Source: Mustelus asterias
Lineage: Eukaryota
Direction of reading: 5' to 3'
NCBI RefSeq assembly: GCF_964213995.1
Contig: NW_027590139.1
Span: forward strand, 62,001-126,000
Length of the DNA: 64,000 bases
The translations under genes were made by a program, and so were the position numbers. Position 1 is the first letter of the stretch; each line of letters opens with the position of its first letter. Below the pieces are notes generated by a model. That model was not told where the DNA came from. It saw only the letters and a list, made by a program, of their open reading frames with translations, and made no database searches. This document shows, in pieces, positions 3,919-45,233 of the stretch.

Positions 3919-4660
3919 TTCCAGTGTGAAGTGATGTGTCCCTTCGAGCTGCTGCAGTCTCTCTCACTTTAGCATCTGAGGTTATATATTCCCAAAGCCT
4001 TTAATTTATACACTGTGAAGTCACCTTAGGGACATTGTGGCAGCAACCTGGTTTGAAGTTTTTAAAAAAAATATATGAACAAATAGATTACGACATTGAG
4101 TTCAGTGGTGGAAAATATTTATTTTTAGTATTGACTTACTTCTTTCCAGACACTGGATTCTGTTGATCATATTTATCAACTAATAACAAGTGGAAAGATG
4201 CTGTCCACTCAAACACCATCAGTCCCACCTCGAGATCTCAGATAGTTTCAGTGATATCTATCACTGGACTGTGACATTTCAGAAATTGAGTTTCAATTGT
4301 GACCGTGTCTCTCTGTGTGGTATTTAACTGTTGATATTCTGTGATGTGATTTAAGTGGGCGAGAGTTTAGCATAAATTGTACAATTCTGTTGATCAATAA
4401 TTTGGAACTATTTAGCCTGCAAATAAATTTGTCTTTTATCCCGAAATCTAATGCAGCTTCTCAAACTGAGAAAATATTCAGAAACAATGGGACATCTCAG
4501 AAAATTCAGGCCCTGCAGCAGATACAAACACATCACCTCTTAGAGCAGTAAAATAACAGATTTAACTGTGACAAGCAATGCACAGGCTCCAAATGACACT
4601 GGACTCGCATCTGATACAGTGTTCAGAAACGTGCTCAGATGTGGAAGGAGAGAGATTGTT

Positions 4661-6482
4661 CCACTGGAGCAAGCTGAGAGGGAGTGATTGGAGGCAGCAG
4701 TGCTGGTGAGAGATTAATTGAATTGTTTATTTATTTAATTAGTCAGCTCGTGTATGTTTTATTTTGGCCTTTACTTTTGCAGTAGTATTTTAAGTTTAAA
4801 GTGAAAACTGGAAGTGGGCTGCTAAGGAGTCTGGGAAGGGTTTTTTAAGCGCGTGAAGTATAAAAGGTAGGCTGCAGTATACAGCGGGCAGCGTCGGGAG
4901 CGGGCAGGGGAGTGCTTGGGAAGCAGAGTGTGAGCTATAAGGCTTTGGCTCACAGGGCTTTGGTAGAAAGGGCGAGCAGAGGTGAGTTTAAATTCATTTC
5001 TGCACTTTCTACCTGGTACTGGCAAGGTATCTAGAGGGGATGGGTGTGCAGGCAGTGCTATGTTCCTCTTGCACTATGTTTGAGGTGAGGGACGACGACA
5101 GTGTCCCTGCTGATTACACCTGTGGGAAGTGCACCCATCTGCAGCTCCTCCAAAATCGTGTTAGGGAACTGGAGCTGGAGTTGGATGAACGTAGGATCTT
5201 TAGGGACGCAGAGGTGGCCATAGACAGAAGCTTTAGGGATACAGTTACTCCGAGGAATGAAAACAGATGGGTGACGGTGAAAGGGGCTGGGAGGAAGCAG
5301 TCCGTGCAGGGATCCCCGGTGGTCGTTCCCCTTAGCAACAAGTATTCCGCTTTGGATACGGTTGAGGGGGATGAAATACCAGTGATGAGCGGCAGTGAGA
5401 GGATCTCCAGCACTGTGTCCGTCTCTGTGGCTCGGGAGGGTAAGGGGCAGAGCGGGAGGGCAATAGTTATTGGGGACTCGTTAGTTAGAGGGATAGATAG
5501 GAGGTTCTGTGGCAGCAAAAGAGACTCACGGATGGAATGTTGCCTACCGGATGCGAAGGTCCGTGACGTCTCAGACCGTGTTTTCTGGATTCTGAAGGGG
5601 GAGGGGAAACAGTCACAAGTCGTGGTACACATTGGTACCAATGACATAGGTAAGAGAAGGGACGGGGATTTAAAGCAGGAATTTCTGGAGCTGGGCTGGA
5701 AGCTGAGAGCCAAGACAAAACATGTGGTCATCTCTGGTACGTTGCCGGTGCCACGTGATAGCGAGTTGTGGAACAGGGAGAGAGTGCAGTTAAACATGTG
5801 GTTGCAGGGATGGTGTAGGAGGGAGGGATTCAGATACGTGGATCATTGGAACACATTCTGGGGAAGGTGGGATCTGTACAAACAGGATGGGGTGCACCTG
5901 AACCAGAGGGGCACCAATATCCTAGGAGGGAAATTTGTTACGGCTCTTCAGGGGGGTTTAAACTAATTTGTCAGGGGAGTGGGAAAAGGAGTTGTAGTCC
6001 AGAAGTCAGTGAGGGTGGTGAGGTATTGGGGAAGGTATCAGGGTCAAGGGTCGGTACCGGTAGACAGGAAGGTGGGTTGAAGTGTGTCTACTTCAATGCA
6101 AGGAGCATCCGGAACAAGGTAGATGAACTTGGGGCGTGGATTGGTACTTGGGACTACGATGTTGTGGCCATTACGGCGACGTGGGTAGAACAAGGACAGG
6201 AATGGTTGTTGGACGTTCCGGGGTATAGATGTTTCACTAAGTGTAGGGAAGCTGATAAAAGAGGTGGAGGAGTGGCATTGTTAATCAAAGATAGTTTAAC
6301 GGCTGCGGAAAGGCACTTCGAGGGGGATCTGCACACTGAGGTAATATGGGCTGAGGTTAGAAATAGGAAAGGAGCGGTCACGTTGTTAGGAGTTTACTAT
6401 AGGCCCCCAAATAGTAATAGAGATGTGGAGGAAGAAATTGCTAAGCAGATTATGGATATGTGTGGGGGGCACAGGGTAGTTG
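4661..6482 (+). mobile_element. 3'-truncated CR1 LINE, family A (5'UTR, ORF1, start of ORF2)
   Basis: Close match to 6590-8410. It breaks off inside the APE domain at GGHRVVV. Confidence 0.9.
5040..5966 (+). CDS. CR1 ORF1p (zinc-finger/leucine-zipper plus SGNH esterase)
   Basis: CSSC..CGKC, LELEL zipper, and the SGNH blocks IVIGDS, VHIGTND and DGVH. Confidence 0.9.
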   Translation: MGVQAVLCSSCTMFEVRDDDSVPADYTCGKCTHLQLLQNRVRELELELDERRIFRDAEVAIDRSFRDTVTPRNENRWVTVKGAGRKQSVQGSPVVVPLSNKYSALDTVEGDEIPVMSGSERISSTVSVSVAREGKGQSGRAIVIGDSLVRGIDRRFCGSKRDSRMECCLPDAKVRDVSDRVFWILKGEGKQSQVVVHIGTNDIGKRRDGDLKQEFLELGWKLRAKTKHVVISGTLPVPRDSELWNRERVQLNMWLQGWCRREGFRYVDHWNTFWGRWDLYKQDGVHLNQRGTNILGGKFVTALQGGLN

Positions 6483-6966
6483 TTTTTCAAGTTTAAAGTG
6501 AAAACTAGAAGTGGGCAGCAAAGGAGTCTGGGAAGGGTTTTTATTTTAACTTTAAAAGTCAGTTACCTGGGAGGTTCCCCCTCATTGATCCACTGGAGCA
6601 AGCTGAGAGGGGTGATTGAAGGCAGCAGTGCTGGTGAGAGATTAATTGAATTGTTTATTTATTTAATTAGTCAGCTAGTGTGTGTATTGTTTTGGCCTTT
6701 ACTTGAACAGCAGTTTTTCAAGTTTAAAGTGAAAACTAGAAGTGGGCAGCAAAGGAGTCTGGGAAGGGATTTTTAAGCGCGTGAAGTATAAAAGGTAGGC
6801 TGCAGTATACAGCGGGCAGCGTCGGGAGCGGGCAGTGGAGTGTGTGGGAAGCAGAGTGTGAGCTATAAGACTTTGGCTCACAGGGCTTAGGCTGAAAGGG
6901 CGAGCAGGGGTGAGTTGAATTCATTTTTGCACTTTCTACCTGGTACTGGCAAGGTATCTAGAGGGG

Positions 6967-7893
6967 ATGGGTGTGCAGGCAGTGCAATGTTCCTCTTGCA
7001 CTATGTTTGAGGTGAGGGACGACGACAGTGTCCCTACTGATTACACCTGTGGGAAGTGCACCCATCTGCAGCTCCTCCAAAACCGTGTGAGGGAACTGGA
7101 GCTGGAGTTGGATGAACTTAGGATCATTAGGGACGCAGAGATGGCCATAGACACAAGCTTTAGGAATACAGTTACTCCGAGGATTGAAAACAGATGGGTG
7201 ACGGTGAGAGGGGCTGGGAGGAAGCAGTCCGTGCAGGGATCCCCGGTGGTCGTTCCCCTTAGCAACAAGTATTCCGCTTTGGATACGGTTGAGGGGGATG
7301 ACATACCAGTGGGGAGCCGCAGTGAGAGGATCTCCAGCACTGTGTCCGTCTCTGTGGCTCGGGAGGGTAAGGGGGAGAGCGGGAGGGCGATAGTTATTGG
7401 GGACTCGTTAGTTAGAGGGATAGATAGGAGGTTCTGTGGCAGCAAAAGAGACTCACGGATGGTATGTTGCCTACCGGATGCCAAGGTCCGTGATGTCTCA
7501 GACCGTGTTTTCCAGATTCTGAAGGGGGAGGGGAAACAGTCACAAGTCGTGGTGCACATTGGTACCAATGACATAGGTAAGAGAAGGGACGGGGATTTAA
7601 AGCAGGAATTTCTGGAGCTGGGCTGGAAGCTGAGAGCCAAGACGAAACATGTGGTCATCTCTGGTACGTTGCTGGTACCACGTGATAGCGAGTTGAGGAA
7701 CAGGGAGAGAGTGCAGTTAAATATGTGGTTGCAGGGATGGTGTAGGAGGGAGGGTTTCAGATACATGGATAATTGGAACACGTTCTGGGGAAGGTGGGAC
7801 CTGTACAAACAGGACGGGGTGCACCTGAACCAGAGGGGCACCAATATCCTCGGAGGGAAATTTGTTACGGCTCTTCAGGGGGGTTTAAACTAA
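6967..7893 (+). CDS. CR1 ORF1p (zinc-finger/leucine-zipper plus SGNH esterase)
   Basis: 308 aa with CSSC/CGKC, GDS, GTND and DGVH motifs. Confidence 0.92.
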   Translation: MGVQAVQCSSCTMFEVRDDDSVPTDYTCGKCTHLQLLQNRVRELELELDELRIIRDAEMAIDTSFRNTVTPRIENRWVTVRGAGRKQSVQGSPVVVPLSNKYSALDTVEGDDIPVGSRSERISSTVSVSVAREGKGESGRAIVIGDSLVRGIDRRFCGSKRDSRMVCCLPDAKVRDVSDRVFQILKGEGKQSQVVVHIGTNDIGKRRDGDLKQEFLELGWKLRAKTKHVVISGTLLVPRDSELRNRERVQLNMWLQGWCRREGFRYMDNWNTFWGRWDLYKQDGVHLNQRGTNILGGKFVTALQGGLN

Positions 7894-10787
7894 TTTGTCA
7901 GGGGAGTGGGAAAGGGAGTTGTAGTCCAGAAGTCAGTGAGGGTGGTGAGATATTGGGGAAGGTATCAGGGTCAAGGGTGGGCACTGGTAGACAGGAAGGT
8001 GGGTTGAAGTGTGTCTACTTCAATGCAAGGAGCATCCGGAACAAGGTAGATGAACTTGGGGCGTGGATTGGTACTTGGGACTACGATGTTGTGGCCATTA
8101 CGGAGACGTGGGTAGAACAAGGACAGGAATGGTTGTTGGACGTTCCGGGGTATAGATGTTTCACTAAGTGTAGGGAAGCTGGTAAAAGAGGTGGAGGAGT
8201 GGCATTGTTAATCAAGGATAGTTTAACGGCTGCGGAAAGGCACTTCGGGGGGGATCTGCACACTGAGGTAATATGGGCTGAAGTTAGAAATAGGAAAGGA
8301 GCGGTCACGTTGCTAGGAGTTTACTATAGGCCCCCAAATAGTAATAGAGATGTGGAGGAAGAAATTGCTAAGCAGATTATGGATATGTGTGGGGGTCACA
8401 GGGTAGTTGTCATGGGGGACTTTAACTTTCCAAATATTGATTGGAACCTTTGTAGGTCAAATAGTTTGGATGGGGCAGTTTTTGTGCAGTGTGTGCGGGA
8501 GGGTTTCCTGACACAATATGTGGATGGGCCGACTAGAGGTGAGGCCACATTGGATTTGGTACTGGGAAATGAACCGGGCCAAGTGTTAGATTTGGTTGTG
8601 GGAGAGCAATTTGGAGATAGTGACCACAATTCGGTGTCTTTTGTTATTGCAATGGAGAGGGATAGGGCCGTACGGCAGGGCAAGGTTTACAATTGGGGGA
8701 GGGGTAATTATGATGCGATTAGGCAAGAATTAGGGGGCATAAGTTGGGAACAGAAACTGTCAGAGAAAGGAACTAATGAAAAGTGGAACTTTTTCAAGGA
8801 ACAAATACTGGATGTCCTTGATAGGTATGTCCCTGTCAGGCAGGGAGGAAATGGCCGAGTGAGGGAACCATGGTTCACAAAAGAGGTGGAATGTCTTGTG
8901 AAAAGGAAGAGGGAAGCTTATGTAGGGATGAGGAAACAAGGTTCAGATGGCTCGATTGAGGGTTACAAGTTAGCAAGGAATGAGCTGAAAAAGGGGCTTA
9001 GGAGAGCTAGGAGGGGACATGAGAAGTCCTTGGCGGGTCGGATCAAGGAAAACCCCAAGGCTTTTTACTGTTATGTGAGGAATAAAAGAATGACCAGGGT
9101 GAGGTTAGGGCCGGTCAAGGACAGTAGTGGGAACTTGTGTATGGAGTCAGTAGAGATAGGCGAGGTGATGAATGAATACTTTTCTTCAGTGTTCACCAAG
9201 GAGAGGGGCCATGTTTTTGAGGAAGAGAAGGTGTTACAGGATAATAGGCTGGAGGAAATAGATGTTCGGAGGGAGGATGTCTTGGCAGTTTTGAATAAAC
9301 TGAAGGTCGATAAGTCCCCTGGGCCTGATGAAATGTATCCTAGGATACTTTGGGAGGCAAGGGATGAGATTGCAGAGCCTTTGGCGTTGATCTTTGGGTC
9401 CTCGCTGTCCACGGGGATGGTGCCAGAGGACTGGAGAATGGCGAATGTTGTTCCTCTGTTTAAGAAAGGGAATAGAAATGACCCTGGTAATTATAGACCG
9501 GTTAGTCTTACTTCGGTGGTTGGTAAATTGATGGAAAGGGTCCTTACGGATGGGATTTACGACCATTTAGAAAGATGCGGATTAATCCGAGATAGTCAGC
9601 ACGGATTCGTGAAGGGCAAGTCGTGCCTCACAAATTTGATAGAATTTATTAAGGAGGTAACTAAGTGTGTTGATGAAGGTAGGGCAGTTGATGTCATATA
9701 CATGGATTTCAGTAAGGCGTTTGATAAGGTCCCCCATGGTCGGCTTATGATGAAAGTGAGGAGGTGTGGGATAGAGGGGAAGTTAGCCAATTGGATAGGT
9801 AACTGGCTGTCTGATCGAAGACAGAGGGTGGTGGTGGATGGAAAATTTTCGGATTGGAGGCAGGTTGCTAGCGGAGTGCCGCAGGGATCAGTGCTTGGTC
9901 CTCTGCTCTTTGTGATTTTTATTAATGACTTAGAGGAGGGGGCTGAAGGGTGGATCAGTAAATTTGCTGATGACACCAAGATTGGTGGAGTAGTGGATGA
10001 GGTGGAGGGCTGTTGTAGACTGCAAAGAGACATAGATAGGGTACAAAGCTGGGCTAAAAAATGGAAAATGGAGTTTAACTCTGATAAATGTGAGGTGATT
10101 CATTTTGGGAGGCCTAATTTAAATGTGGATTACAGCGTCAAAGGTAGGGTTCTGAAGACTGTGGAGGAACAGAGAGATCTTAGGGTTCATATCCACAGAT
10201 CTCGAAAGGTTGCCACTCAATTGGAGAGAGCTGTGAAGAAGGCCTATAGTGTGTTAGCTTTTATTAACAGGGGATTGGAGTTTAAGAGCCGTGGGGTTAT
10301 GCTGCAACTGTACAGGACCTTGGTGAGACCACATTTGGAATATTGTGTGCAGTTCTGGTCACCTCACTATAAGAAGGATGTGGAAGCGCTGGGAAGAGTG
10401 CAGAGGAGATTTACCAGTATGCTGCCTGGTTTGGAGGGTAGGTCTTATGAGGAAAGGTTGAGGGAGCTAGGGCTGTTCTCTCTGGAGCGGAGGAGACTGA
10501 GGGGAGACTTAATAGAGGTTTATAAAATGATGAAGGGGATAGATAGAGTGAATGTTCAAAGACTATTTCCTCGGGTGGATGGAGCTATGGCAAGGGGGCA
10601 TAACTATAGGGTTCGTGGTGGGAGATATAGGAAGGATATCAGAGGTAGGTTCTTTACGCAGAGAGTGGTTAGGGTGTGGAATGGACTGCCTGCAGTGATA
10701 GTGGAGTCAGACACTTTAGTAACATTTAAGCGGTTATTGGATAGGCACATGGAGCACACCAGGATGATAGGGAGTGGGAGAGCTTGA
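7884..10787 (+). CDS. CR1 ORF2p (APE endonuclease plus reverse transcriptase); 5' boundary set at the predicted frameshift site
   Basis: APE motifs YFNARS, ITETW, GDFN and SDH. RT motifs NYRPVSLTS, YMDFSKAFD, GVPQGSVLGP and FADD. The frame is open from 7773 (non-ATG), and the first in-frame ATG is at 8379. Confidence 0.92.
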   Translation, partial: FKLICQGSGKGSCSPEVSEGGEILGKVSGSRVGTGRQEGGLKCVYFNARSIRNKVDELGAWIGTWDYDVVAITETWVEQGQEWLLDVPGYRCFTKCREAGKRGGGVALLIKDSLTAAERHFGGDLHTEVIWAEVRNRKGAVTLLGVYYRPPNSNRDVEEEIAKQIMDMCGGHRVVVMGDFNFPNIDWNLCRSNSLDGAVFVQCVREGFLTQYVDGPTRGEATLDLVLGNEPGQVLDLVVGEQFGDSDHNSVSFVIAMERDRAVRQGKVYNWGRGNYDAIRQELGGISWEQKLSEKGTNEKWNFFKEQILDVLDRYVPVRQGGNGRVREPWFTKEVECLVKRKREAYVGMRKQGSDGSIEGYKLARNELKKGLRRARRGHEKSLAGRIKENPKAFYCYVRNKRMTRVRLGPVKDSSGNLCMESVEIGEVMNEYFSSVFTKERGHVFEEEKVLQDNRLEEIDVRREDVLAVLNKLKVDKSPGPDEMYPRILWEARDEIAEPLALIFGSSLSTGMVPEDWRMANVVPLFKKGNRNDPGNYRPVSLTSVVGKLMERVLTDGIYDHLERCGLIRDSQHGFVKGKSCLTNLIEFIKEVTKCVDEGRAVDVIYMDFSKAFDKVPHGRLMMKVRRCGIEGKLANWIGNWLSDRRQRVVVDGKFSDWRQVASGVPQGSVLGPLLFVIFINDLEEGAEGWISKFADDTKIGGVVDEVEGCCRLQRDIDRVQSWAKKWKMEFNSDKCEVIHFGRPNLNVDYSVKGRVLKTVEEQRDLRVHIHRSRKVATQLERAVKKAYSVLAFINRGLEFKSRGVMLQLYRTLVRPHLEYCVQFWSPHYKKDVEALGRVQRRFTSMLPGLEGRSYEERLRELGLFSLERRRLRGDLIEVYKMMKGIDRVNVQRLFPRVDGAMARGHNYRVRGGRYRKDIRGRFFTQRVVRVWNGLPAVIVESDTLVTFKRLLDRHMEHTRMIGSGRA

Positions 10788-11223
10788 TCTTGCTTTCAGA
10801 TAAAGCTCGGCACAACATCGTGGGCCGAAGGGCCTGTTCTGTGCTGTACTGTTCTATGTTCTATGTTCTAAACAAGTACAGAGTCAAGGAAAATAGAGAG
10901 GAAGAGGAGGAAAGAACAAGCGGTCTTTTGATCGGATGGAAGGCTGGAGTGATTGAATTACAGTGAAGCTGATTATTGTTCCCACTGACACAATCTCGCT
11001 GATCTGGGTTTAAATCTCATAATAAATGAGATCAAAACCTCTCGCTGAGTTCAGGGCGAAACTCCCCGCCTTCCAGTGAACTGGAGGCAGTTTTCAGTCA
11101 GAAACCCACAACTGTGAGATAAACAACGCAGAAAGGAGAAAGATTCAGTTTGAGCGGTGACACTTCTGGAGGAACGGAGATCTGGAATTCACCCAGGAAT
11201 GAGGCAAAGTTTAAAAACAGTGC

Positions 11224-11296
11224 TGCCCAACGTGGAGCTCGAACCCACGACCCTAAGATTAAGAGTCTCATGCTCTACCGACTGAGCTAGCCGGGC
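11224..11296 (-). tRNA. tRNA-Lys(CTT)
   Basis: GCCCGGCTAGCTCAGTCGGTAGAGCATGAGACTCTTAATCTTAGGGTCGTGGGTTCGAGCTCCACGTTGGGCA, 73 nt, near-canonical. Confidence 0.9.
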
Positions 11297-12122
11297 ACAT
11301 GCAGTCAAATCATTTCCATAACCTAAAATGCATGGAGACAAATACGGGTTTTCCATCTGGTGTCTTCAGCATGTTCTGATTTCAAAGTTTACAATGAATC
11401 CACCGACAGAATCCCCAAATTTCCTATCCATTCCTCTGAATCATTAATTACATTATTCACATCTTCCAATTCTTAGCTTCACCTCTCCCAAATATTCCAA
11501 ACTCCTCTTACATCATTCTCCTTATTTTTCTTTGTTCTTAATAATTTAGCCGGGGTGGAGGGAACCCAACATTTGCACTGTCAAACTGTTTCCCAGCTTC
11601 AGACTTTTCAATAAGATCACCTCTGATTATTCTTAACTCCAGAGCGAACAGACTAATCCCACTGATTCTCTCCTCGCAAGAGAAACGCAGAAATCAATCC
11701 AGTGAACCTCGGTTACACACAGACAGCGAAATAATGGACAGAGCAAGGAGCAAAAGATGTCAACGTAATAAAAACATCGTCAGTGAGTCTGAGGGAAAGA
11801 TATAGAGACAATGAAAAACAGAAATAGCGAGTGGGGTAGACATCCACAACCCACGAATGAATAACAATAATCACACAGCCAGCTGTCTCTACCAACAAAC
11901 ATGGGGTCCTCTAAACTGGTGAACAGAGATAAAGTGAATGGCCACAAGCATATTCACCTTTTAATGTCTTGATTTTCTTGTGTGAGTGTTGTGTTGATAG
12001 ATTGCCTGCACTGTGTGCTCAGGTTCTCAAACCAAATCCCACGTAAACTAATCCCAACGTTTGCACTGAAAATACATTTATAAAACCTATGACTTGTCCA
12101 ATACGAAACAACAGCTGATTGA

Positions 12123-12214
12123 GGGATCGAGTCCGGCATGTGAACCCGAGAACGCTCACACGTTTGTAGATGCTTACTCCCCAGGCCCGAGTCATGCCCC
12201 TCGTCCAACGAGCC
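12123..12214 (-). pseudogene. tRNA-Pro pseudogene with an ~18-nt insert after the anticodon
   Basis: GGCTCGTTGGACGAGGGGCATGA...GGGG[AGTAAGCATCTACAAACG]TGTGAG...GGGTTCACATGCCGGAC. Confidence 0.7.
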
Positions 12215-14192
12215 GCTGCTGAGGATGTTGTTCAATGAAAATATTTCCATTGACATCCAAAGCTGCTCAGACTTCTGCAGTGAAAGGTGAAAATGCTGGA
12301 AAAACTCAGAAAGCCAGACAGCTTGTGTGCACAGGAAAACAAATCTGATATTTTAGCTCCATAACCTTTCATTGGGAACAACTGGGAATTTTTAGAAATG
12401 TAGGAAGTTTTAAACAAGTGTTATCCAGCCGCATAACAGGAGGGTTTGAGGCCTCTTGCCGGGTGTAAATCAGGAGAGATTAAATGAGGGAAACAAAGAA
12501 ATTTAAAGTAATTAAACCACAGAGTGGGGCCATTCCTCAGCCCCTTACAGGACTCAGTTGTGGTGTGGATGAAGGGGAAACCTGTGGATGTAATGTATGT
12601 AGATTACATTGGAGCCACATTGATGAGTTGGTGGGTTTGAAAAATTGAAATTTACACTTAGGAACATAGAATTAGGAGCAGAAGTGGGCAAATTCAGCGC
12701 TTCGAGCCTGAACCATCATGCAATCAGTTCATGACTGATCTCTCCCTGTTCTCAAATCCACCTCCCTACCTGTTCCAATATCCCCTCATCCCTTTAATTA
12801 TCAGGAATATATCTGTCTCTTTCTTGAAATCATTTAATGATTCAGACTCAACCGTGCTATACTGCAATGCATTCCACAAATTCACGACCCTCAGTGAGAA
12901 GCTCCTCATCTCAGTTTTAAATCTACCACCTCTCAACATATACATTTGACATGGTGTTCCCGATTCCGCATAAGAAAAAGATTTCACTTTCTTCAATCCT
13001 ATTTAGAATTTTATATACCACGATCACTTCAGCATCTTGTGGGACTATTTGACCTCACTGTCGATTTCATGTCCCAGCAAGCACAATTGGTGTTGTCATT
13101 AGATGAAGCAGTCACTTATGTTCCACCCAAACTGGGCACATTAAGGGATATATGGTAAGTCATTTTGAAAAACACAGTTCACCCGTGGCCCTGGGAGTCC
13201 AGTGGGTTGTATTCAGTACTCCCCAGTGTTGTTTGTTTTCAATTCCCGCTGAGAGAACGATTATTTATAGCTGTCAGCAAACTATTGAAAAATAACGTGA
13301 TTTACTATCTGATCGAAAGTAGATCTACTAATATCAGCCGAGTGAGTTTTGCAAGTCTACATCACAGCTGGAAACGTCACATGTGCAACAGGTCAAGAAC
13401 AAACACAGTAGCAGAAAGATAGTGATAGGCTGCAAAGCGCTGACAATTGAGTTGGTGATGTTAGGTAACATCTGGATGGTAAAAAGGTCAGATTTTGGCA
13501 TTCACACTGAATTATTCAACTTTTCCCTCACTCTGCAACGAAAATATTTGGAAAAGGTTCTCTCTCGTTTCAAACAGTCGGAAGTGGAATTAATAACTGT
13601 AAGTGGAATGTCTGTTGTATGTTGTCACTGATTGAATGTATCACTGGGATGGAAACAGAAGGTTCCATATTGCAACAGAGACTTGCTTGTGGTGAATGTA
13701 GTCTGGCCTGGCGCGAAAAATAAAGCAACACATGCAGTGTGTGTAAAGCAAGTTGTAAAACAGGCTACAAGCAGCTGGTCTGGTGGTCAGAGTTTGACAC
13801 TTTCACTGCTGTTTCGATTGGTGGTCAGGTAATGGAGATTTGTTGCTCTTATCCAAACCGTAAAAACAGATGTCAGTTATTGCCTTGTGGAACATATAAA
13901 ACACAATCTCGCTTCGTGTCCTGAAGTGAAGACTGAGCAAATTCAACAGGAGGTTTTTTCTTGTCATTTCTGGCAGGATAGTGGGAACCAGACAAGGTTA
14001 AGGGCAGTTTAAATGATGTGGTCCTTCACTGCAGCTCATTCTGTTTCTGACTGGATGTGATTCCTGCTTGTTACAGAGTTCAGGATCAATTGATTCAGTA
14101 AAGGAGCAGGCTCAAGCCGACTGATGGACTGTCGCAGCTCCATTGCTGCTAATTTCAATAACGATACCAGTAAAGGACACAGCTGCTTACGT

Positions 14193-14274
14193 GGTAACGT
14201 AGCCGAGTAATCTAAGCCAGTGGCTGAAGGTCCAGTCTCTACGGAGTTGTTGTGTTCGACTGCAGCCACTGCCA
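14193..14274 (+). pseudogene. tRNA-Leu(AAG) pseudogene
   Basis: 82 nt that align to the Leu gene at 28272 with many substitutions. Confidence 0.75.
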
Positions 14275-15228
14275 GAATGGGTTTGAGTTTTGGTCCCTGC
14301 AGTTGAAGTCCAGCATTTCAGATTGAATGCAAGAGTTTGTGCCGTGTCGTTTTTGGCATGAAGAAAGAGGAGCGACAGAGCAATGTGAACAGGTGTTGAG
14401 GTAAAGGAACGATTGTGGAAGGACTGGAGCAAATTATCGTGGATTCTGGAATCGGAAACAAAAAGAGAAAATGCTGGAAAATCTCACCAGGTCTGGCAGC
14501 ATCTGTAAGGAGTGAAGAAAGCTGACATTTCGAGACCAGATGACCCTTTGTCAAAGCTGGGAGGAGTGGAGCTGCTCCGATGGAGAATATAAACGGGAAC
14601 ACCGGTTGAATGGCTGTCTGTCGAAATAAACAGCAGGATTGCAAACATTGAGACTGCAGTCCCGGCCCAGGGGATGGATTGGGATTTTCTAACTGAGGTT
14701 CAAATCCTATCATGTGCGCTTCCCGTCATTCCTCATTGTGACTTTTTTTTAATTGAAAGTTATTGGAAATGAAGCAATGGGTGCAGAGATGATCAACTCA
14801 CTCCATATTTGTCACATCAGCGTCACTGAGTGTCTAGTGATCAGCGTCGGCGCCGTGACGCGGTTTCGATTCCCAGTCTCGGAGTGAATAAATTTTTGTT
14901 CATTTCTTCATTCAATAAAAACAGCGTCCGTGAAGGGAACAACAAGCTAAATCTTCCAGCTGGATGAACTTGTATCAGAGCTGGAAAAATCAGAGATGTT
15001 ACATTAACGATAAACTCTGAAGAAGAACCACATGTCACACACAACATACATGTCAAGTACATACACAATACACATGTCAAATCATGTCACTTTCAACTTC
15101 TGTCTTTTAACTTCCGGCTCTCCACCTCAGACATTTCCACATTCATCAAAAATCTCCGTCCTCGAACCCCATCCTGGTCCTCAATCCACGGATAATGCTG
15201 CACTTAGTGACAGCTCCTTGTAGCATTT

Positions 15229-15301
15229 GGCTCCATAGCTCAGTGGGTAGAGCACTGGTCTTGTAAACCAGGGGTCGCGAGTTCAATTCTCGCTGGAGCC
15301 T
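15229..15301 (+). tRNA. tRNA-Thr(TGT)
   Basis: GGCTCCATAGCTCAGTGGGTAGAGCACTGGTCTTGTAAACCAGGGGTCGCGAGTTCAATTCTCGCTGGAGCCT, all stems pair. Confidence 0.93.
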
Positions 15302-15459
15302 ACGGGCAAAGTTTAGCTGATAGAAGCTGTCGGAAAAGGGAAGGGAGTCTAAAAGTGAAGAGATAAGTCGAGGTTCAGATCGGGTGTGATTTTGGAAAGC
15401 GAAAAGATATGTCCTTCTTCGTAAAAAAAATCGAAAGAGCAGGACATATTTGAAGAGCT

Positions 15460-16130
15460 AAAAAAGGTTAGTGTCGATATTGAGAATAGAATAGATGCGT
15501 TTGGACAAGGACTGCATAAAGCTGGCATGTAGGTGCAGGCAATGATTGGAAGGAAACTTGCAATTTAGTCTTTATTGACGGCAGACTGGAGTCCAAGTAT
15601 AACGAGGTGTTGCTGCAGTTGCACAGAGTTTTGTTGAGACCACGTGTTGAATATTCTGTGCCGATATGATATTCACATTTAATAAAGGGTTTATTTGCAT
15701 TGGAAACGGTGCAGATAAGGTTCAGCAGATGATCCCTGGGATGAGGGAGTTGTCGTATGATGAGAGGCTGAGTAAATTGGGCTGAAAGTCTCTGGAGTTT
15801 GGAGGAATGAGAGGCGATTTCATTAAACCTACACAAGTCTGATTGGGTTTGACAGGGTGGAGGCTGAGAGATTTCTTCTGCTTGTCGGGAAATCTAACCC
15901 ACGGCAGTACAGTCTCAGGAAAATGGGCTGATCATTTCGGCCTATGATAAGGCGAAATTACTTCACTGAAATGGTTGTGAATCTTTGAAATTCCCTATGC
16001 CAGACAGTTATGGAAGCTCCATCATCGAATATATTTAAGGTTGGGATAGACAGGTTTCTGGCCTCTCGGGGAATTCAGGGATATGGGGAGCTGGTGAAAA
16101 ACTGAGTTGTACTCCAAGATCAGCCATAAG
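15460..16130 (+). mobile_element. Degenerate CR1 3' fragment (paralog at about 24890-25560)
   Basis: Similar to the CR1 ORF2 C-terminus and 3'UTR. Confidence 0.75.
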
Positions 16131-16550
16131 AAGCTATTTTATTCAAATAACCAAGAACTTTAAGGAAACAAGTAAAACATGTTAATTAAGGTACTGCCCT
16201 TCATTGACTGGAAAGTGCTTTGTGACGTCCGCTGGTCGGGATAGGTTCTATATAAATGCAAATATTTCATGATCTTCAATCCTCGTCCTCTGTTACTGAG
16301 CCCAGTCAGTGGGAACAGTCTGTCCCTCCCTGCTCTATCAAACGGTCGTTTTCCATGTTAGAAGGGATGAACCATTACACCACAACAACACTGTGGGGTA
16401 AAATAATAAAATATACATGTTTAGATTTGTAAACGATGCCACCATTTGGTCTTTCTGTGTCAGGTTTGGTGAAAATTGAATTGGCGTCTAACTTGCAGCC
16501 AACACGCTGTCACCCTGATTTAGGATGCCATGTAAGCGTCATTTTCGTCA

Positions 16551-16624
16551 GTCTCTGTGGCGCAATTGGTTAGCGCGTTCGGCTGTTAACTGAAAGGTTG
16601 ATGGTTCGAGACCATCCAGGGACG
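16551..16624 (+). tRNA. tRNA-Asn(GTT), slightly variant
   Basis: GTCTCTGTGGCGCAATTGGTTAGCGCGTTCGGCTGTTAACTGAAAGGTTGATGGTTCGAGACCATCCAGGGACG followed by an oligo-T run. Confidence 0.85.
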
Positions 16625-17261
16625 GGGCTTTCACTTTTTTTTCCTCTCCATCTGCTTTCATTGTCTCTCGGTTTTTGAGTGTCACTGAGTCCTTGGGCAA
16701 CACTAAAAAAAAACTTATCGTGTGTTTCTGCCTCTACTGTTAGCCGACGTTAGTTTATTGAACATTTATCTCCAACATATTATTTGTAACAATTTATATA
16801 TTTCAAATATTATTAAACTCAATAACTGAACTCGAAACTTTAACCCATGTTTGATCTTGGGTTTCCATTTTCCTGCACACTCCCCTTCTTTCTCAGATTT
16901 CTCAGGAATCTGTCTGTCGCAACCTGAAATGTGTTCAATAAGGAAAATACACAGCAAGTCGGCAAAGATCAGTGTAATGAGGACTGAGTTAAACTTTCAC
17001 CAGAATGCTGTTTTTATAATTGCAAAGTCCTGAGATTGAGAGCAGATAGTTCACATGGGAAAGGGCTGTTTGATAGAGCAGATAGGGACACACTGTTTCC
17101 ACTGACGAGGGTCAGTAACCAAAGGATTGGGATTAAAGATAATTAATGAAAGACCGACTTGTATTTATGTCGCGCCTTTCCCGGTTGCTGGACGTCACAA
17201 AGCGCTGTGCAGCCAATGGAAGACAGTTCCAATTGAAAAAATAGTATCAGCTCGACAAGGA

Positions 17262-17333
17262 AGGAGGCATTCGGATTTGAACCGAGGACCTCTTGATCTG
17301 CAGTCAAATGCGCTACCGCTGAGCTACACCCCC
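17262..17333 (-). tRNA. tRNA-Cys(GCA), variant
   Basis: GGGGGTGTAGCTCAGCGGTAGCGCATTTGACTGCAGATCAAGAGGTCCTCGGTTCAAATCCGAATGCCTCCT, 72 nt, with a few mismatches. Confidence 0.8.
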
Positions 17334-17789
17334 TCAATCGCAAGCTGGTTCACGGGATCCAGCATATTCTTATTAAGTGTGGAGGGGGATCGAGTGGTCA
17401 GACTGCATCCCGCTTTGTCTCAGAGTTACTGGTTTCTGAGTGAAGTCGGAAAGCTTAGTGTTTAAGTTAGCGAGATGTTTTCTTGTGATTTGGCTGAGAT
17501 TTGGATCCAGGTCGAGGAGATATTTGTGTCAACCTAATCGATAAAATCTACCCCATTGTCATACAGATTTGTATCCCCATCTCTATTGGCAGCGCTTTGC
17601 AGCCTATCACGGCCTTTCACTATCTGTGTTTATTCTTAAACTGTTGCCCGTGTGACATTTCCAATTCAGACACAGAATTATAGATCTAACTGCACTGCTT
17701 CTGACAGAGCTGTTTTCGATCAGGAAGCAATTCAGGTTTGTTGAACGGATTATGAAAAACTTTAAATCTTAGCATATCGAAGCCGATCT

Positions 17790-17830
17790 ATGACTCTGAA
17801 AGCGCCGAATCCTAACCACTGGAACACCAG
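17790..17830 (-). pseudogene. tRNA-Glu 5' remnant
   Basis: Reverse complement CTGGTGTTCCAGTGGTTAGGATTCGGCGCTTTCA. Confidence 0.55.
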
Positions 17831-18467
17831 AATTTCATCTTCCTGATTCTCCCAGAAACTGAGTACAGGATTATGCACAGTGCCAATTACTCACGGTTGC
17901 ACTCACCTTCCAATCTTGTGCACGTTGTTCAGCTTTGAAATTGTTCATATTTTCACATTAGCTTCCAGTGTGATGAAAGCGGAGCTGTGATAAGCTGAAT
18001 CTTTTCAACAGATTTACTGCAATAAGGTTTATAACAAACATTACTCTTTGAATGTGGTGAGCTGCAGTGAAATTTAATGCAGCAGAAGGTAGCTCACTCA
18101 TTTTGACAGGAGGTGCCAGCAATTGCAATGTAAATATGATGTCGAGATACGGGCGTTGGACTGGGATGGGCAGAATAAGAAGACTCAGAGCATCATGTTA
18201 AAGTCTAACTGGTTCAATTGCTCCAATAATAAAATAAATTTGCTTTATTTTATCAGCGCCCCGAAAGCTCTTGATTCCAAATTGATCGCGTGTTGTGAGA
18301 CTTCGTAATGTAAATATTAATTGTTGTGGGTAATTGACAGGATTGTGGATTGTGGCAAATTTGTCCTCCCTGCTGTTCAACCTGCCACAAGTATCGCTCC
18401 CGTTTTGAATCAGGAAGCAATACCCACTCTCCTTAATTCATGTGTTGCACGAGAGAATGAATCATCA

Positions 18468-18539
18468 TTCCCTAACCGGGAATCGAACCCAGACCATGGC
18501 ATTGAAGGCGGCGAATTCTAACGACTAGACCAACAAGGA
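18468..18539 (-). pseudogene. tRNA-Glu(TTC) pseudogene
   Basis: TCCTTGTTGGTCTAGTCGTTAGAATTCGCCGCCTTCAATGCCATGGTCTGGGTTCGATTCCCGGTTAGGGAA; the anticodon stem is disrupted. Confidence 0.75.
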
Positions 18540-18569
18540 AATTGAAGTGTCCTGAGCATTATTGAGCAA

Positions 18570-18651
18570 GTGTGCGTGTGCGTGCGGCTGGGTGCGTGCG
18601 TGCGTGGGTGCGTGCGGGTGGGCGGGCAGGCGGGTGTGTGCGTGCGTGTGT
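18570..18651. repeat. (GTGC)n/(GT)n microsatellite
   Basis: Direct reading. Confidence 0.9.
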
Positions 18652-20188: not shown

Positions 20189-20261
20189 CGCCCAACGTGG
20201 GGCTCGAACCCACGGAGCTGTGATTAAGAGTCTTATGCTCTACCGACTGAGCTCGCCAGGC
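20189..20261 (-). pseudogene. tRNA-Lys(CTT), probable pseudogene
   Basis: Paralog of 11224. The anticodon stem TAAGA/TCACA has two mismatches. Confidence 0.75.
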
Positions 20262-21099: not shown

Positions 21100-21189
21100 A
21101 ACTCTCGCTCGGCCTTTGAACCCGGGATATCTCGCATGTTGGTGATGTTAACACCCTCAGCCCGAATCATACCCCTCGTCCAACGAGCC
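21100..21189 (-). pseudogene. tRNA-Pro(AGG) pseudogene with a 17-nt intron-position insert
   Basis: GGCTCGTTGGACGAGGGGTATGATTCGGGCTGAGGG[TGTTAACATCACCAACA]TGCGAGATATCCCGGGTTCAAAGGCCGAGCGAG. Confidence 0.78.
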
Positions 21190-41265: not shown

Positions 41266-42222
41266 ATGGCTGGTCAGGTGATGTGCTTGAGCTGCTTGAT
41301 GTGGGAGCTGGCAGATCCCATTGCGAGCTACAGCGACCACATCTGCAGTAAGTGTTGGCTGCTTGAAAAACTCCGGCTCAGAGTTGATGAGCTGGAGTCT
41401 GAGCTTCAAACACTGAGGCACATCCGGGAGGGGGAGACTTACCTGGACACTGTGTTTCAGGAGGCAGTCACACCTGTCAGAGTAAATAGTTTAAATCCTG
41501 CCAGTGGCCAGGGACAGCAGGGTGTGACTGCAAGTCAGGCAGGTAAAGGGAACCAGCAGTCAGGAACTCAGGAGCCTCAGCCCTTGACCCTGTCCAACAG
41601 GTACGAGGCACTTGCTCCCTGTGTGGATGGCAAACAGGGCTGCAGGAAGGATGAGTCAGCTGACCAAGGCACCATGGTTCAGCAGGCCATTCAAGGGGAG
41701 GAAGTAAATAGGCAAGTTGTAGTTGGAGGGGATTCTATTATCAGGGGGATAGATAGTATCCTTTGTGAGCAGGATAGAGTGTCCCGCATGGTATGTTGCC
41801 TGCCCGGTGCTAGGGTGCGGGACATCTCTGACCGGCTTGAAAGGATACTGGAGAGGGAGGGGGAGGATCCAGTTGTTGTGGTCCATGTTGGTACCAACAA
41901 CATAGGCAAGTCTAGGAAAGAGGATCTGTTTAGAGATTATAAAGAGCTAGGATTCAAATTAAAAAACAGGTCCTCAAGGGTCATAATCTCCGGATTACTG
42001 CCCGAGCCACGTGCTAATTGGCATAGGGAGACAAGAATAAGGGAAGTTAACACGTGGCTGAAAGAGTGGTGTGGGAAAGAGGGGTTCTTTTTCATGGGAC
42101 ACTGGCATCAGTTTTGGGGCAGGGGGGACCTATACCGTTGGGATGGTCTCCACCTGGACCGAGCTGGGATCAGTGTTCTGGCGAAGAGAGTAAATAGGGT
42201 GGTCAATAGGACTTTAAACTAG
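41266..42222 (+). CDS. CR1 ORF1p (zinc-finger/leucine-zipper plus SGNH esterase)
   Basis: CLSC..CSKC, LESELQTL, GDS, VHVGTNN and DGLH. Confidence 0.92.
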   Translation: MAGQVMCLSCLMWELADPIASYSDHICSKCWLLEKLRLRVDELESELQTLRHIREGETYLDTVFQEAVTPVRVNSLNPASGQGQQGVTASQAGKGNQQSGTQEPQPLTLSNRYEALAPCVDGKQGCRKDESADQGTMVQQAIQGEEVNRQVVVGGDSIIRGIDSILCEQDRVSRMVCCLPGARVRDISDRLERILEREGEDPVVVVHVGTNNIGKSRKEDLFRDYKELGFKLKNRSSRVIISGLLPEPRANWHRETRIREVNTWLKEWCGKEGFFFMGHWHQFWGRGDLYRWDGLHLDRAGISVLAKRVNRVVNRTLN

Positions 42223-42356
42223 AGATTGGGGGGGAAGGGAAAGTCAGGGAACCAAGAGGTGAAGGAATCAGTGGGAAGCGTAGCTGCTTAGGATTACAAA
42301 AAATCACGAAAAGACAGCGCTCAGGAGAGGTTACGATAGTCCCCATCTCACAAAAT

Positions 42357-45233
42357 ATGACACAGTGTCTGGAAAGGCTCAGTAAACCAAGGTCCACCAC
42401 ACTACGAAAACAAAAAGGGACGGTCAATAGTGAATTAAAGGTGCTATATTTAAATGCCCGCAGTGTCCGGAACAAGGTAGATGAGCTTGTGGCCCAGATT
42501 GTGACTGGCAGGTATGATGTGGTAGGCATCACAGAGACGTGGTTGCAGGGGGTTCAGGACTGGCAGTTAAACATCCAGGGATTCACAACCTATCGAAAAG
42601 ACAGAGAGGTGGGTAGAGGGGGCGGGGTTGCCTTGTTAATTAGAAATGAAATTAAATCAATAGCACTAAACGACATAGGGTCAGACGATGTGGAGTCTGT
42701 GTGGGTAGAGTTGAGGAACCACAAAGGCAAAAAAACCATAATGGGAGTTATGTACAGGCCTCCTGACAGTGGTCAGGACCAGGGGCACAAAATGCACCAC
42801 GAAATAGAAAGGGCATGTCAGAAAGGCAAGGTCACAGTGATCATGGGGGATTTCAATATGCAGGTGGACTGGGTAAATAATGTTGCCAGTGGATCCAAAG
42901 AAAGGGAATTCATTGAATGTTTACAGGATGGCTTTTTGGAACAGCTTGTATTGGAGCCCACGAGGGAACAGGCTATTCTGGACTTAGTGTTATATAATGA
43001 GCCAGACGTGATAAAAAATCTTAAAGTAAGGGAACACTTAGGAAGCAGTGATCATAATATGGTAGAATTCAGTCTGAAATTTGAAAGAAGGAAGGCAGAA
43101 TCAGATGTGAAGGTTCTACAGTTAAATAAAGGTAATTACAGGCGCATGAGGGAAGAACTGACAAAGATCGACTGGAAGCAGAGCCTAGTGGGAAAGACAG
43201 TAGAACAGCAATGGCAGGAGTTTCTGGGAGTAATTGAGGACACAGTGCAGAGGTTCATCCCAAACAAAAGAAAGGTTATCAGAGGGGGGATTAGGCAGCC
43301 ATGGCTGACAAAGGAAGTCAGGGAATGCATCAAGGCAAAAGAGAGAGCCTATAATGTGGCAAAGAGTAGTGGGAAGTCAGAAGATTGGGAAGGCTATAAA
43401 AACAAACAGAGGATAACAAAGAGAGAAATAATGAAGGAGAGGATCAAATATGAAGGTAGGCTAGCCAGTAACATTAGGAATGATAGTAAAAGTTTCTTTA
43501 AATACATTAAAAACAAACGGGAGGCAAAAGTAGACATTGGGCCGCTCCAAAATGACGCTGGTAATCTAGTGATGGGAGACAAGGAAATAGCTGAGGAACT
43601 TAATAAGTACTTTGCGTCAGTCTTCACAGTAGAAGACATGAGTAATATCCCAACAATTCAGGAAAGTCAGGGGGCAGAGTTGAATATGGTTGCCATCACA
43701 AAGGAGAAAGTGCTAGAGAAACTAAAAGGTCTGAAAATTGATAAATCTCCGGGCCCAGATGGGCTACATCCTAGAGTTCTAAAGGAGATAGCTGAAGAAA
43801 TAGTGGAGGCGTTGGTTATGATCTTTCAAAAGTCACTGGAGTCAGGGAAAGTCCCAGAGGATTGGAAAATCGCTGTTGTAACCCCACTGTTCAAGAAGGG
43901 AACAAGAAAAAAGATGGGAAATTATAGGCCAATTAGCCTAACCTCAGTTGTTGGCAAAATTCTAGAATCCATCGTTAAGGATGAGATTTCTAAATTCTTG
44001 GAAGTGCAGGGTCGGATTAGGACAAGCCAGCATGGATTTAGTAAGGGGAGGTCGTGCCTGACAAACCTGTTAGAGTTCTTTGAAGAGATAACAAATAGGT
44101 TAGACCAAGGAGAGCCAATGGATGTTATCTATCTTGACTTCCAAAAGGCCTTTGACAAGGTGCCTCACGGGAGACTGATAAGTAAAATAAGGGCCCATGG
44201 TATTCGAGGCAAGGTACTAACATGGATTGACGATTGGCTGTCAGACAGAAGGCAGAGAGTTGGGATAAAAGGTTCTTTCTCAGAATGGCAACCGGTGACA
44301 AGTGGTGTCCCGCAGGGTTCAGTGTTGGGGCCACAGCTGTTCTCTTTATATATTAACGATCTAGATGACGGGACTGGGGGCATTCTGGCCAAGTTTGCCG
44401 ATGATACAAAGATAGGTGGAGGGGCAGGTAGTATTGAGGAGGTGGGGAGGCTGCAGAAAGATTTAGACAGTTTAGGAGAGTGGTCCAAGAAGTGGCTGAT
44501 GAAATTCAACGTGGGCAAGTGCGAGGTCTTGCACTTTGGAAAAAAGAATAGAGGCATGGACTATTTTCTAAACGGTGACAAAATTCATAATGCTAAAGTG
44601 CAAAGGGACTTGGGAGTCCTAGTCCAGGATTCTCTAAAGGTAAACTTGCAGGTTGAGTCCGTAATTAAGAAAGCAAATGTAATGTTGTCATTTATCTCAA
44701 GAGGCTTGGAATACAAAAGCAGGGATGTACTTCTGAGGCTTTATAAAGCACTGGTTCGGCCCCATTTGGAGTACTGTGAGCAATTTTGGGCCCCGCACCT
44801 CAGGAAGGACATACTGGCACTGGAGCGGGTCCAACGGAGATTCACACGGATGATCCCAGGAATGGTAGGCCTGACATACGATGAACGTCTGAGGATCGTG
44901 GGATTATATTCATTGGAGTTTAGGAGGTTGAGGGGAGATCTAATAGAAACTTACAAGATAATGAACGGCTTAGATAGGATGGACGTAGGGAAGTTGTTTC
45001 CATTAGCAGGGGAGACTAGGACGCGGGGGCACAGCCTTAGAATAAATGGGAGTCACTTTAGAACAGAGATGAGGAGAAATTTCTGCAGCCAGAGAGTGGT
45101 AGGTCTGTGGAATTCATTGCCACAGAGGGCTGTGGAGGCCGAGACGTTGAGCGTCTTCAAGACAGAAATTGATAAATTCTTGATTTCTCGAGGAATTAAG
45201 GGCTATGGGGAGAGAGCGGGTAAATGGAATTGA
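42357..45233 (+). CDS. CR1 ORF2p (APE endonuclease plus RT)
   Basis: YLNARS, ITETW, GDFN, SDH, YLDFQKAFD, GVPQGSVLGP and FADD. The frame is also open upstream to 42213. Confidence 0.93.
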   Translation: MTQCLERLSKPRSTTLRKQKGTVNSELKVLYLNARSVRNKVDELVAQIVTGRYDVVGITETWLQGVQDWQLNIQGFTTYRKDREVGRGGGVALLIRNEIKSIALNDIGSDDVESVWVELRNHKGKKTIMGVMYRPPDSGQDQGHKMHHEIERACQKGKVTVIMGDFNMQVDWVNNVASGSKEREFIECLQDGFLEQLVLEPTREQAILDLVLYNEPDVIKNLKVREHLGSSDHNMVEFSLKFERRKAESDVKVLQLNKGNYRRMREELTKIDWKQSLVGKTVEQQWQEFLGVIEDTVQRFIPNKRKVIRGGIRQPWLTKEVRECIKAKERAYNVAKSSGKSEDWEGYKNKQRITKREIMKERIKYEGRLASNIRNDSKSFFKYIKNKREAKVDIGPLQNDAGNLVMGDKEIAEELNKYFASVFTVEDMSNIPTIQESQGAELNMVAITKEKVLEKLKGLKIDKSPGPDGLHPRVLKEIAEEIVEALVMIFQKSLESGKVPEDWKIAVVTPLFKKGTRKKMGNYRPISLTSVVGKILESIVKDEISKFLEVQGRIRTSQHGFSKGRSCLTNLLEFFEEITNRLDQGEPMDVIYLDFQKAFDKVPHGRLISKIRAHGIRGKVLTWIDDWLSDRRQRVGIKGSFSEWQPVTSGVPQGSVLGPQLFSLYINDLDDGTGGILAKFADDTKIGGGAGSIEEVGRLQKDLDSLGEWSKKWLMKFNVGKCEVLHFGKKNRGMDYFLNGDKIHNAKVQRDLGVLVQDSLKVNLQVESVIKKANVMLSFISRGLEYKSRDVLLRLYKALVRPHLEYCEQFWAPHLRKDILALERVQRRFTRMIPGMVGLTYDERLRIVGLYSLEFRRLRGDLIETYKIMNGLDRMDVGKLFPLAGETRTRGHSLRINGSHFRTEMRRNFCSQRVVGLWNSLPQRAVEAETLSVFKTEIDKFLISRGIKGYGERAGKWN

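Follow-up and report, generated by a model that had tools for sequence, protein, structure and literature searches.

CR1 ranks among the major LINEs in birds, reptiles and sharks, and reviews call the translation of LINE ORF2 an open question, with the known routes each yielding a separate ORF2 protein (ORF2p). The question is raised directly by the window analysed here, a 64,000-nt stretch of the Mustelus asterias genome, in which two families of CR1 elements place the endonuclease and reverse transcriptase (RT) of ORF2 in the -1 frame relative to an esterase-encoding ORF1. An earlier note on this DNA had suggested that family A makes a fusion of ORF1p and ORF2p by programmed -1 frameshifting. 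The comparisons below support this as the most likely mechanism, such that these CR1 LINEs probably produce an esterase-endonuclease-RT fusion. The family A features are as follows.

4655..6483, + strand: family A 5' fragment (5'UTR, ORF1 and the first ~200 ORF2 codons), located by blastn and tblastn
5957..5966, + strand: heptamer and TAA in the 5' fragment
6584..6966, + strand: 5'UTR of the full family A copy, from the alignment start (5' edge approximate)
6967..7893, + strand: ORF1, 308 aa, from ATG 6967, ending ...GLN stop (PF13472, E 1e-10)
7881..7887, + strand: second heptamer, G_GGU_UUA, in ORF1 phase and overlapping U_UUA_AAC
7884..7890, + strand: slippery heptamer U_UUA_AAC, the predicted -1 shift site, in the X_XXY_YYZ phase of ORF1
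7891..7893, + strand: ORF1 stop, directly 3' of the heptamer
7890..8015, + strand: linker of 42 codons from shift site to endonuclease, open in the -1 frame and free of ATG
7901..7910, + strand: G-tract (GGGG-NNN-GGG) after a 10-nt spacer, a candidate unstructured stimulator
8016..10787, + strand: ORF2 body, with APE endonuclease and RT (PF03372, PF00078)
10788..10870, + strand: 3'UTR, ending in short TTCTATG repeats (about 10850-10870)

The ORF1p of family A combines a Cys-rich N-terminus, a long helix that is likely a coiled coil, and an SGNH/GDSL esterase (PF13472 above cut-off). The element has no LTR or poly(A), and its 3' end consists of short tandem repeats, which we take to be a CR1-type family trait; the CR1 label is a provisional one, based on ORF1 type, 3' tail and the name used in the earlier note. 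ORF1 ends GGT TTA AAC TAA, which puts the heptamer in slippery phase immediately before the stop, and the ORF2 frame is -1 relative to ORF1 and open from 7773 to 10787, both as had been claimed. The first in-frame ATG past the heptamer, at 8379 (codon 203 of the open frame), falls inside the Pfam endonuclease match (codons 82-285), confirming the view that it comes too late for an intact endonuclease. The sister copy described as divergent, which is the 5' fragment directly upstream of the full copy, does keep the heptamer (5957-5963), but belongs to the same family, being 95.9% identical to the full copy over 1829 nt; because of this ~96% identity, it is not independent evidence. The overlapping G_GGU_UUA is kept in 30 of 31 family A copies, and is missing from several other families.

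U_UUA_AAC is not special to family A. Family B, overlooked in the earlier note, is the informative comparison case, with the same site and frame.

41266..42222, + strand: family B ORF1, 318 aa, ending ...TLN stop
42213..42222, + strand: family B heptamer U_UUA_AAC and TAG
42219..45233, + strand: family B ORF2 in the -1 frame, a 76-codon linker followed by APE (from 42447) and RT (PF03372 and PF00078 above cut-off)
42230..42239, + strand: family B G-tract, again after a 10-nt spacer

The ORF1p of family B is 41% identical to that of family A. Its -1 frame closes just upstream of the heptamer, leaving a 13-nt overlap with ORF1, and an in-frame ATG at 42357 lies in the linker, upstream of the endonuclease. 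In both families, most ribosomes would stop at the ORF1 stop and release ORF1p, while a small share would slip -1 at U_UUA_AAC to generate a predicted fusion ordered as esterase, linker, endonuclease and RT, of 1273 aa in family A and 1322 aa in family B by summed frame lengths. A presumably low slip efficiency would give many ORF1p per RT; a bare U_UUA_AAC control showed 0.4% frameshifting in vitro, which may be enough for the element.

Within the window, TTTAAACTA occurs 4 times against 0.53 expected, a count reached by 0 of 100 shuffles, with CR1 ORF1 ends accounting for 3 of the 4. Strict in-frame heptamers alone are not rare, as each ORF2 in families A and B contains 4 to 5 and each ORF1 a further 2, and it is position and conservation that carry the argument. 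Firstly, TTTAAAC lies no more than 3 nt away from its expected position, as judged by an anchor omitting the last 8 ORF1p residues, in 183 of 197 distinct copies from 10 families of the M. asterias genome, the one source of all DNA-level evidence; the families share ancestry, such that neither copies nor families are independent counts, and the copies form 9 clusters that are 55-78% alike at the ORF1 3' end. Secondly, among loci chosen by ORF2 similarity alone, the heptamer is present in 29 of the 33 having an ORF1 end. Thirdly, across 8 families, the terminal Leu is the sole single-codon column (TTA, with a usage of 16%) among 9 invariant Leu columns, the terminal Asn column is likewise single-codon, as 1 of 3 for invariant Asn, and of all invariant runs in the 495 nt compared, TTTAAAC is the longest. 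Fourthly, the codon preceding TTA encodes 5 amino acids across these 8 families, with a final T in all of them. When 10 families are aligned, codon identity holds at 2 of the 28 invariant columns of 4- or 6-fold degeneracy, the terminal Leu being one; in this alignment a 1-nt insertion in four related copies displaces the last columns of an old family, distinguished by TAATG at its ORF1 stop, so that Asn is not invariant there. An ORF2 control of the codon comparison carries no weight here, since frameshifted copies made its alignment noisy. The commonest ORF1 stop in every family is TAA or TAG, never TGA. One outcome named in the earlier note as refuting the idea, a swap of TTA AAC for synonymous codons across families, is thus not seen, and the heptamer is conserved beyond amino-acid need.

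Two other accounts of the junction together attract very little probability: that the terminal LN reflects a protein constraint on the esterase, with its codons simply inherited, or that ORF2 is expressed from a spliced RNA with an acceptor at the junction. The former would fit the invariance of N324 in a 31-protein alignment, but synonymous positions elsewhere have diverged between families while the heptamer codons are unchanged, which argues against both constraint and descent. In an AlphaFold model of ORF1p the last three residues lie past the last helix with pLDDT < 50, and are uninformative on a structural role. Splicing could use AG dinucleotides at or just past the stop, and the donor-like GGTGAGT in the 5'UTRs of families A and B, but would give family A no AUG. 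Weaker points against it come from contigs of four runs, which drop rare forms, carry no information on expression level or strand, and whose RNA status is a guess: none of the 9 joints listed has GT-AG borders or terminates at the junction, which a single contig of 1757 nt crosses without gaps.

The distance from junction to APE varies from 125 to 359 nt. Of the 184 copies in which APE was located, 130 have ORF2 in the -1 frame, and the other two frames are stop-bearing in most families. The remaining 54 are for the most part old copies that carry indels, commonly within the G-run, and the -1 frame is seen in 0 of 6 copies of the TAATG family. The overlap of the -1 frame with ORF1 is limited to 13-25 nt in most families, and in all of them TTTAAAC is the only heptamer in it. 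The earlier claim that no AUG precedes the endonuclease stands for family A, where only 2 of 30 open linkers have one, sporadically, but an in-frame AUG is fixed before APE in 4 of 10 families, and the argument from the missing AUG is therefore not general. No near-cognate codon is common to the 6 families without a fixed AUG.

Termination-reinitiation has to be weighed, in which ribosomes would stop at the ORF1 stop and restart nearby in the -1 frame, at an AUG (UAAUG) or a non-AUG codon, to release a free ORF2p. The case for this process, which we consider unlikely, draws on the old family whose 12 copies all have an AUG overlapping the ORF1 stop (TAATG), as in SART1-type UAAUG coupling (PMC3894237, PMC3708506), with ATT or ATA at the same place in three other TAA families. 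The fixed linker AUGs of three B-like families (codons 18, 48 and 74) and the AUGA overlap of a distant esterase LINE, L067, would also suit it, and human L1 ORF2 reportedly tolerates loss of its AUG. Nevertheless, reinitiation leaves the invariant TTTAAAC and the fixed T before it unpredicted, and the linkers of the AUG-bearing B-like families are open back to the heptamer. One of the 10 families has an AUG that overlaps or adjoins the ORF1 stop, and family A and 8 others have none there; the codon at the stop overlap is GAG, GAA, GAT, GTT or AAT in six families, and in two the first 10 codons include no near-cognate one. Stop-start coupling of the SART1 and calicivirus type involves an upstream UGGGA motif at a fixed distance. 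TGGGA is present upstream in 8 of 8 representatives, at places varying from -15 to -117.

Returning to frameshifting, the sequence 3' of the heptamer is distinguished by the G-tract, which begins after 10 nt and is a strict 10-mer in 123 of 183 copies. No stable 3' hairpin was found beyond the heptamer (z -0.9 to +1.5), nor any hairpin or pseudoknot 5-9 nt downstream, with pseudoknots probed through duplex scans only; RNAalifold returned no consensus structure around the junction, and the 3 Rfam matches were all far under gathering score. No covarying long-range partner for the G-tract was found, and candidates at -430 and -650 were rejected as generic G/C pairing, since matched and mismatched families paired equally well (difference -0.2 to +0.6 kcal/mol, over 14 copies, several truncated 3'). 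A standard G-quadruplex was likewise rejected, as most copies have only 2-3 GGG tracts, despite G4Hunter percentiles of 0.955-0.995; a two-tier G-quadruplex may form. The least certain element of the proposal is that slipping would be stimulated by the G-tract or by the stop next to the heptamer. The conserved but unstructured block of heptamer, stop and G-tract also resembles a single-stranded binding site, and might be a cis-signal separate from decoding, through binding of ORF1p, ORF2p or a host protein, or in transcription or packaging, with ORF2 reached otherwise. This is highly improbable, as chance would have to account for the -1 frame, the precise slippery phase and the pattern of LN, GN and KN ends described below, and the families lacking an AUG would be left without a route to an intact endonuclease.

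Beyond sharks, the ORF1p groups with named snake and bird proteins with a clade support of 98, in a quick-search tree of 90 rows with a midpoint root. LN forms the C-terminal end of 76 of 128 ORF1p homologues, including those of snake, swallow and turtle, with the other 52 ending otherwise; QGN ends 9, KN is at or near the end of others, and GN or KN ends mark a distant clade. In 1 of 76 proteins (0 of 48 cluster representatives), the residue preceding the terminal LN has no codon that ends in T, compared with 17-18% at nearby positions. LN, GN and KN are encoded by U_UUA_AAC, G_GGA_AAC and A_AAA_AAC, although the non-shark relatives are represented by proteins only, such that their codons are presumed; these heptamers are among the four shiftiest named in a passage of PMC5009743. 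No close copy of the GN clade occurs in the M. asterias genome. A metagenome scan recovered 11 loci at 22-37% identity, and an APE ORF could be recognised downstream of only 2 of them; GTDB relatives amounted to one 531-nt contig, and viral contigs and plasmids contained none. Some esterase LINEs, L067 and L063, have other junctions. On a speculative and rather doubtful extension, -1 frameshifting to the fusion would date back to the ancestor of jawed vertebrates in esterase-type CR1 from sharks to birds. A protein bound to the G-tract (a host protein of hnRNP H/F or CNBP type, or ORF1p as feedback) would drive the shift in place of RNA structure, as a G-rich counterpart of the PCBP mechanism of arteriviruses, and distant relatives would swap canonical heptamers (LN, GN and KN ends) without losing the mechanism.

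A conserved -1 site makes the question of ORF2 translation testable with a 60-nt reporter insert. If frameshifting is confirmed, it would answer how CR1 elements make their RT, and would add a vertebrate chromosomal -1 signal without evident RNA structure. CR1 ORF2p annotated from the first AUG would then be mis-annotated, with family A losing more than half of its endonuclease, and CR1-based gene insertion would call for expression constructs that encode the fusion or are given a start. The RT would carry the ORF1p coiled coil and esterase, which might hold it within the ORF1p particle in cis. A literature search, with the primary CR1 papers outside its reach, yielded no report of frameshifting for CR1.

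The closest known systems are the vertebrate esterase-ORF1 CR1 LINEs (subgroup 7, ORF1 type IVB; Metcalfe and Casane 2014, PMC4120745), which share the zinc-finger-like and helical N-terminus and SGNH esterase of ORF1, the APE and RT of ORF2, and the short-repeat 3' tail; neither "frameshift" nor "overlap" appears in that paper, whose relevant passages say nothing on ORF2 translation. SART1 and L1 are similarly bicistronic LINE RNAs with low ORF2 output, and the one old CR1 family with UAAUG at the stop resembles the former, but SART1 coupling and L1 reinitiation produce a separate ORF2p and need no slippery heptamer, whereas family A has no such AUG. Among non-LTR elements, Dictyostelium TRE5-A and TRE3-A and Drosophila HeT-A are said to need frameshifting (PMC5911963, PMC5009743). 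These belong to clades other than CR1, and the HeT-A shift lies within gag. To our knowledge, none of the three has an esterase ORF1. Canonical -1 shifts, of the coronavirus IBV ORF1a/1b and retroviral gag-pol type, share the heptamer, phase, frame and structural-then-polymerase ORF order, but CR1 differs in being a non-LTR element, in the stop directly after the heptamer, and in that no hairpin or pseudoknot was found. The arrangement also recalls the -1/-2 frameshifting of arterivirus PRRSV nsp2, which is protein-stimulated through a short motif ~11 nt downstream (PMC7939443). Both lack RNA structure and have a short, low-complexity, conserved motif ~10-11 nt past the shift site, that of PRRSV being C-rich and bound by PCBP and nsp1beta, and that of CR1 being G-rich, with a putative binder.

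Two full CR1-type LINEs lie in the window, both identified by domain search as encoding an SGNH-esterase in ORF1 and an APE endonuclease with a reverse transcriptase (RT) in ORF2. The two families, A and B, share 41% identity in the ORF1 protein and 48% in the ORF2 protein, and protein searches placed the CR1 ORF1 proteins of this 3.68-Gb genome nearest to named shark and ray proteins.

4655-6483, plus strand: 5' fragment of family A ahead of the full copy, 95.9% identical to it
About 6584-10870, plus strand: full CR1-type LINE, family A (alignment, ORFs)
11222-11297, minus strand: tRNA Lys-CTT, first of five tRNA genes
About 41050-45310, plus strand: second full CR1-type LINE, family B (alignment, ORFs)

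The junction in family A is as the earlier note described it: ORF1 ends GGT TTA AAC TAA, placing the slippery heptamer U_UUA_AAC at 7884-7890, ORF2 lies one base back, in the -1 frame relative to ORF1, and the first ORF2 ATG (8379, codon 203) falls inside the endonuclease match (codons 82-285). The 5' fragment had been called divergent, which its identity to the full copy contradicts. Family B shares both heptamer and frame with A, with a 13 nt ORF1/ORF2 overlap and an in-frame ATG 30 codons ahead of APE.

The fragment and full copy are arranged head-to-tail (4655-6600), with a ~60-nt 5'UTR unit repeated at the joint; local duplication and template switch are candidate readings. The family B 5'UTR resembles a mini-intron at 41097-41156, where about 60 nt hold a donor-like GTGAGT, a branch-like CTAAC, a pyrimidine tract and an AG, and that of family A has a donor-like GGTGAGT at about 6908; such words are present in some copies of these families only. 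The five tRNA genes (Lys-CTT, Thr-TGT, Asn-GTT, Cys-GCA and Leu-TAG) span 11222-28354, the first about 350 nt from the family A 3' end.

Conservation was assessed in loci from protein searches of the genome, comprising best matches and hand-picked lower matches rather than a random sample. From 240 scored loci, removing 3 without an ORF1 end and 40 that repeated a place already counted left 197 copies, in which the ORF1 stop was predicted from an anchor leaving out the last 8 residues. TTTAAAC lay within 3 nt of the predicted place in 183/197. These copies fall into 9 clusters that resemble one another at 55-78% across 240 nt of ORF1; dividing one cluster by hand gave 10 families. Six of the 14 exceptions read TTTAAAT and are decayed, mutually related members of a single old family; point changes, deletions or loss of the junction account for the others. 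To test for selection bias, a set of 40 loci was picked on ORF2 similarity alone, some coinciding with earlier loci: 33 had an ORF1 end, and 29 of these had the heptamer in place, while at least one of the four misses had it a few bases off the anchor.

Judged from codon usage, constraint at the ORF1 end acts on nucleotides. Firstly, across 165 ORF1 columns in eight families, the terminal Leu was the sole single-codon column among nine invariant Leu columns, with TTA throughout, a codon of 16% usage for Leu; the terminal Asn was one of three invariant Asn columns with a single codon, and TTTAAAC was the longest invariant run. Secondly, in ten families (140 columns), only two of 28 invariant four- or six-fold columns were codon-identical, the terminal Leu among them. 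Thirdly, the codon preceding the TTA encoded five amino acids in eight families, always with a final T, although this is modest evidence alone, because 8/66 variable columns similarly share a third base. Some other cis-signal is a very improbable reading of this constraint; protein constraint or splicing is equally improbable, and the contigs of four runs gave splicing no support, a weak argument against it.

The stop-to-APE linker, of 125 to 359 nt, kept the -1 frame in 130/184 copies. In most families this frame closes 13-25 nt ahead of the ORF1 end, and the only heptamer found in the ORF1/ORF2 overlap of all families was U_UUA_AAC. The junction feature is real and conserved and most likely signals -1 frameshifting, and slippage yielding a fusion protein is the probable explanation. 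Most ribosomes would terminate at the ORF1 stop, releasing ORF1p, while a minority would slip and read through linker, APE and RT, with a predicted fusion of 1273 aa in family A. The linkers of families 3, 6, 7, 8 and 9 have no fixed Met in about 240 codons, against about 2.4% Met in ORF2 bodies, which may reflect composition or selection against free ORF2p.

Reinitiation at or near the ORF1 stop is an unlikely general route to ORF2, yet four of ten families have a fixed in-frame AUG ahead of APE: three B-like families at linker codons 18, 48 and 74, and one old family as TAATG overlapping the stop in 12/12 copies. The latter is the SART1 arrangement, UAAUG being a SART1 feature (PMC3894237, PMC3708506). 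At the stop-overlapping codon, ATT or ATA occurs in three other TAA families; hence reinitiation may operate in certain lineages, either by itself or together with slippage. However, all of these families keep the heptamer, six families lack an initiator-like codon at the stop-overlapping place, and reinitiation gives no account of why bases 5' of the stop are fixed.

Copies of old family 5 (L092-L096, L106) combine heptamer and UAAUG, and share one linker start ahead of APEs of differing type, which suggests that families have recombined. Among distant esterase LINEs, L067:2888 has start and stop overlapping as ATGA ahead of an APE ORF in the -1 frame, which would be coupling instead of slippage, and L063:1326 has ORF2 in the ORF1 frame behind TGA CTA, a context favouring stop read-through, with in-frame Met codons ahead of APE too. 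In other CR1 fragments (L097, L099-L102, L104, L107, L109, L110) a short tandem repeat follows the linker and APE is absent; near-identical matches recur on many small contigs, and these are possibly a CR1-derived satellite.

Beyond this genome, the evidence consists of protein sequences. The catalytic His motif lay 20-45 residues before the C-terminus in 128 of 197 homologues; of those 128, 76 ended in LN (background 0.6%), including named snake, swallow and turtle proteins, and nine in GN. The residue before LN lacked a T-ending codon in 1/76, versus 18% nearby (nominal P 6e-6, uncorrected for kinship), and all nine GN ends were QGN, compatible with G_GGA_AAC. A quickly built tree grouped 21 rows of unnamed proteins into a clade (support 96) that switched among GN, LN, KN, EN and FF near the C-terminus, as would be expected from heptamer exchange, with codons inferred from protein. 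The database proteins P0036 (ray) and P0053 derive from copies where a frame change further upstream leads into ORF2, and they read FKL and a G-x-G motif into APE; P0101 also reads FKL. Hence other species have this -1 geometry too. CR1 ORF1 and ORF2 fragments under bacterial names (P0011, P0230; Pseudomonas aeruginosa, Proteus mirabilis) are probably host contamination of assemblies.

A second conserved element, G-GGG-NNN-GG(G), follows after a 10-nt spacer. A third-base G in linker codon 4 and GGG at codon 5 were common to 10/10 families, and GGG at codon 7 to 9/10, in contrast to none of seven invariant Gly columns in ORF1 with a codon common to all; the strict 10-mer occurred at +10 in 123/183 copies. 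Folding, alignment and duplex scans of the families found no hairpin, consensus fold, covarying duplex or clear four-tract quadruplex, and the role of this tract in frameshifting is the weakest link. In PMC3919603, G-quadruplexes 3' of UUUAAAC gave about 7% frameshifting at 6-8 nt spacers, against 0.4% for a disrupted control.

Titles and abstract starts yielded no report of CR1 frameshifting, though primary CR1 descriptions may mention ORF overlap, and 'CR1' was absent from the part searched of PMC5009743. Frameshifting in non-LTR elements nevertheless has precedent in TRE5-A and TRE3-A, according to a review legend (PMC5911963), and in HeT-A (PMC5009743); further related literature includes PMC4255032, PMC5006619, PMC3905857, PMC4120745, PMC13708176 and PMC5381506. 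The protein-bound motif of PRRSV (PMC7939443) is likewise unstructured, but is C-rich and 11 nt downstream of the shift site, whereas the CR1 element is G-rich. With its unexplained G-tract, the CR1 junction would be a new class of host for a known mechanism, -1 frameshifting.
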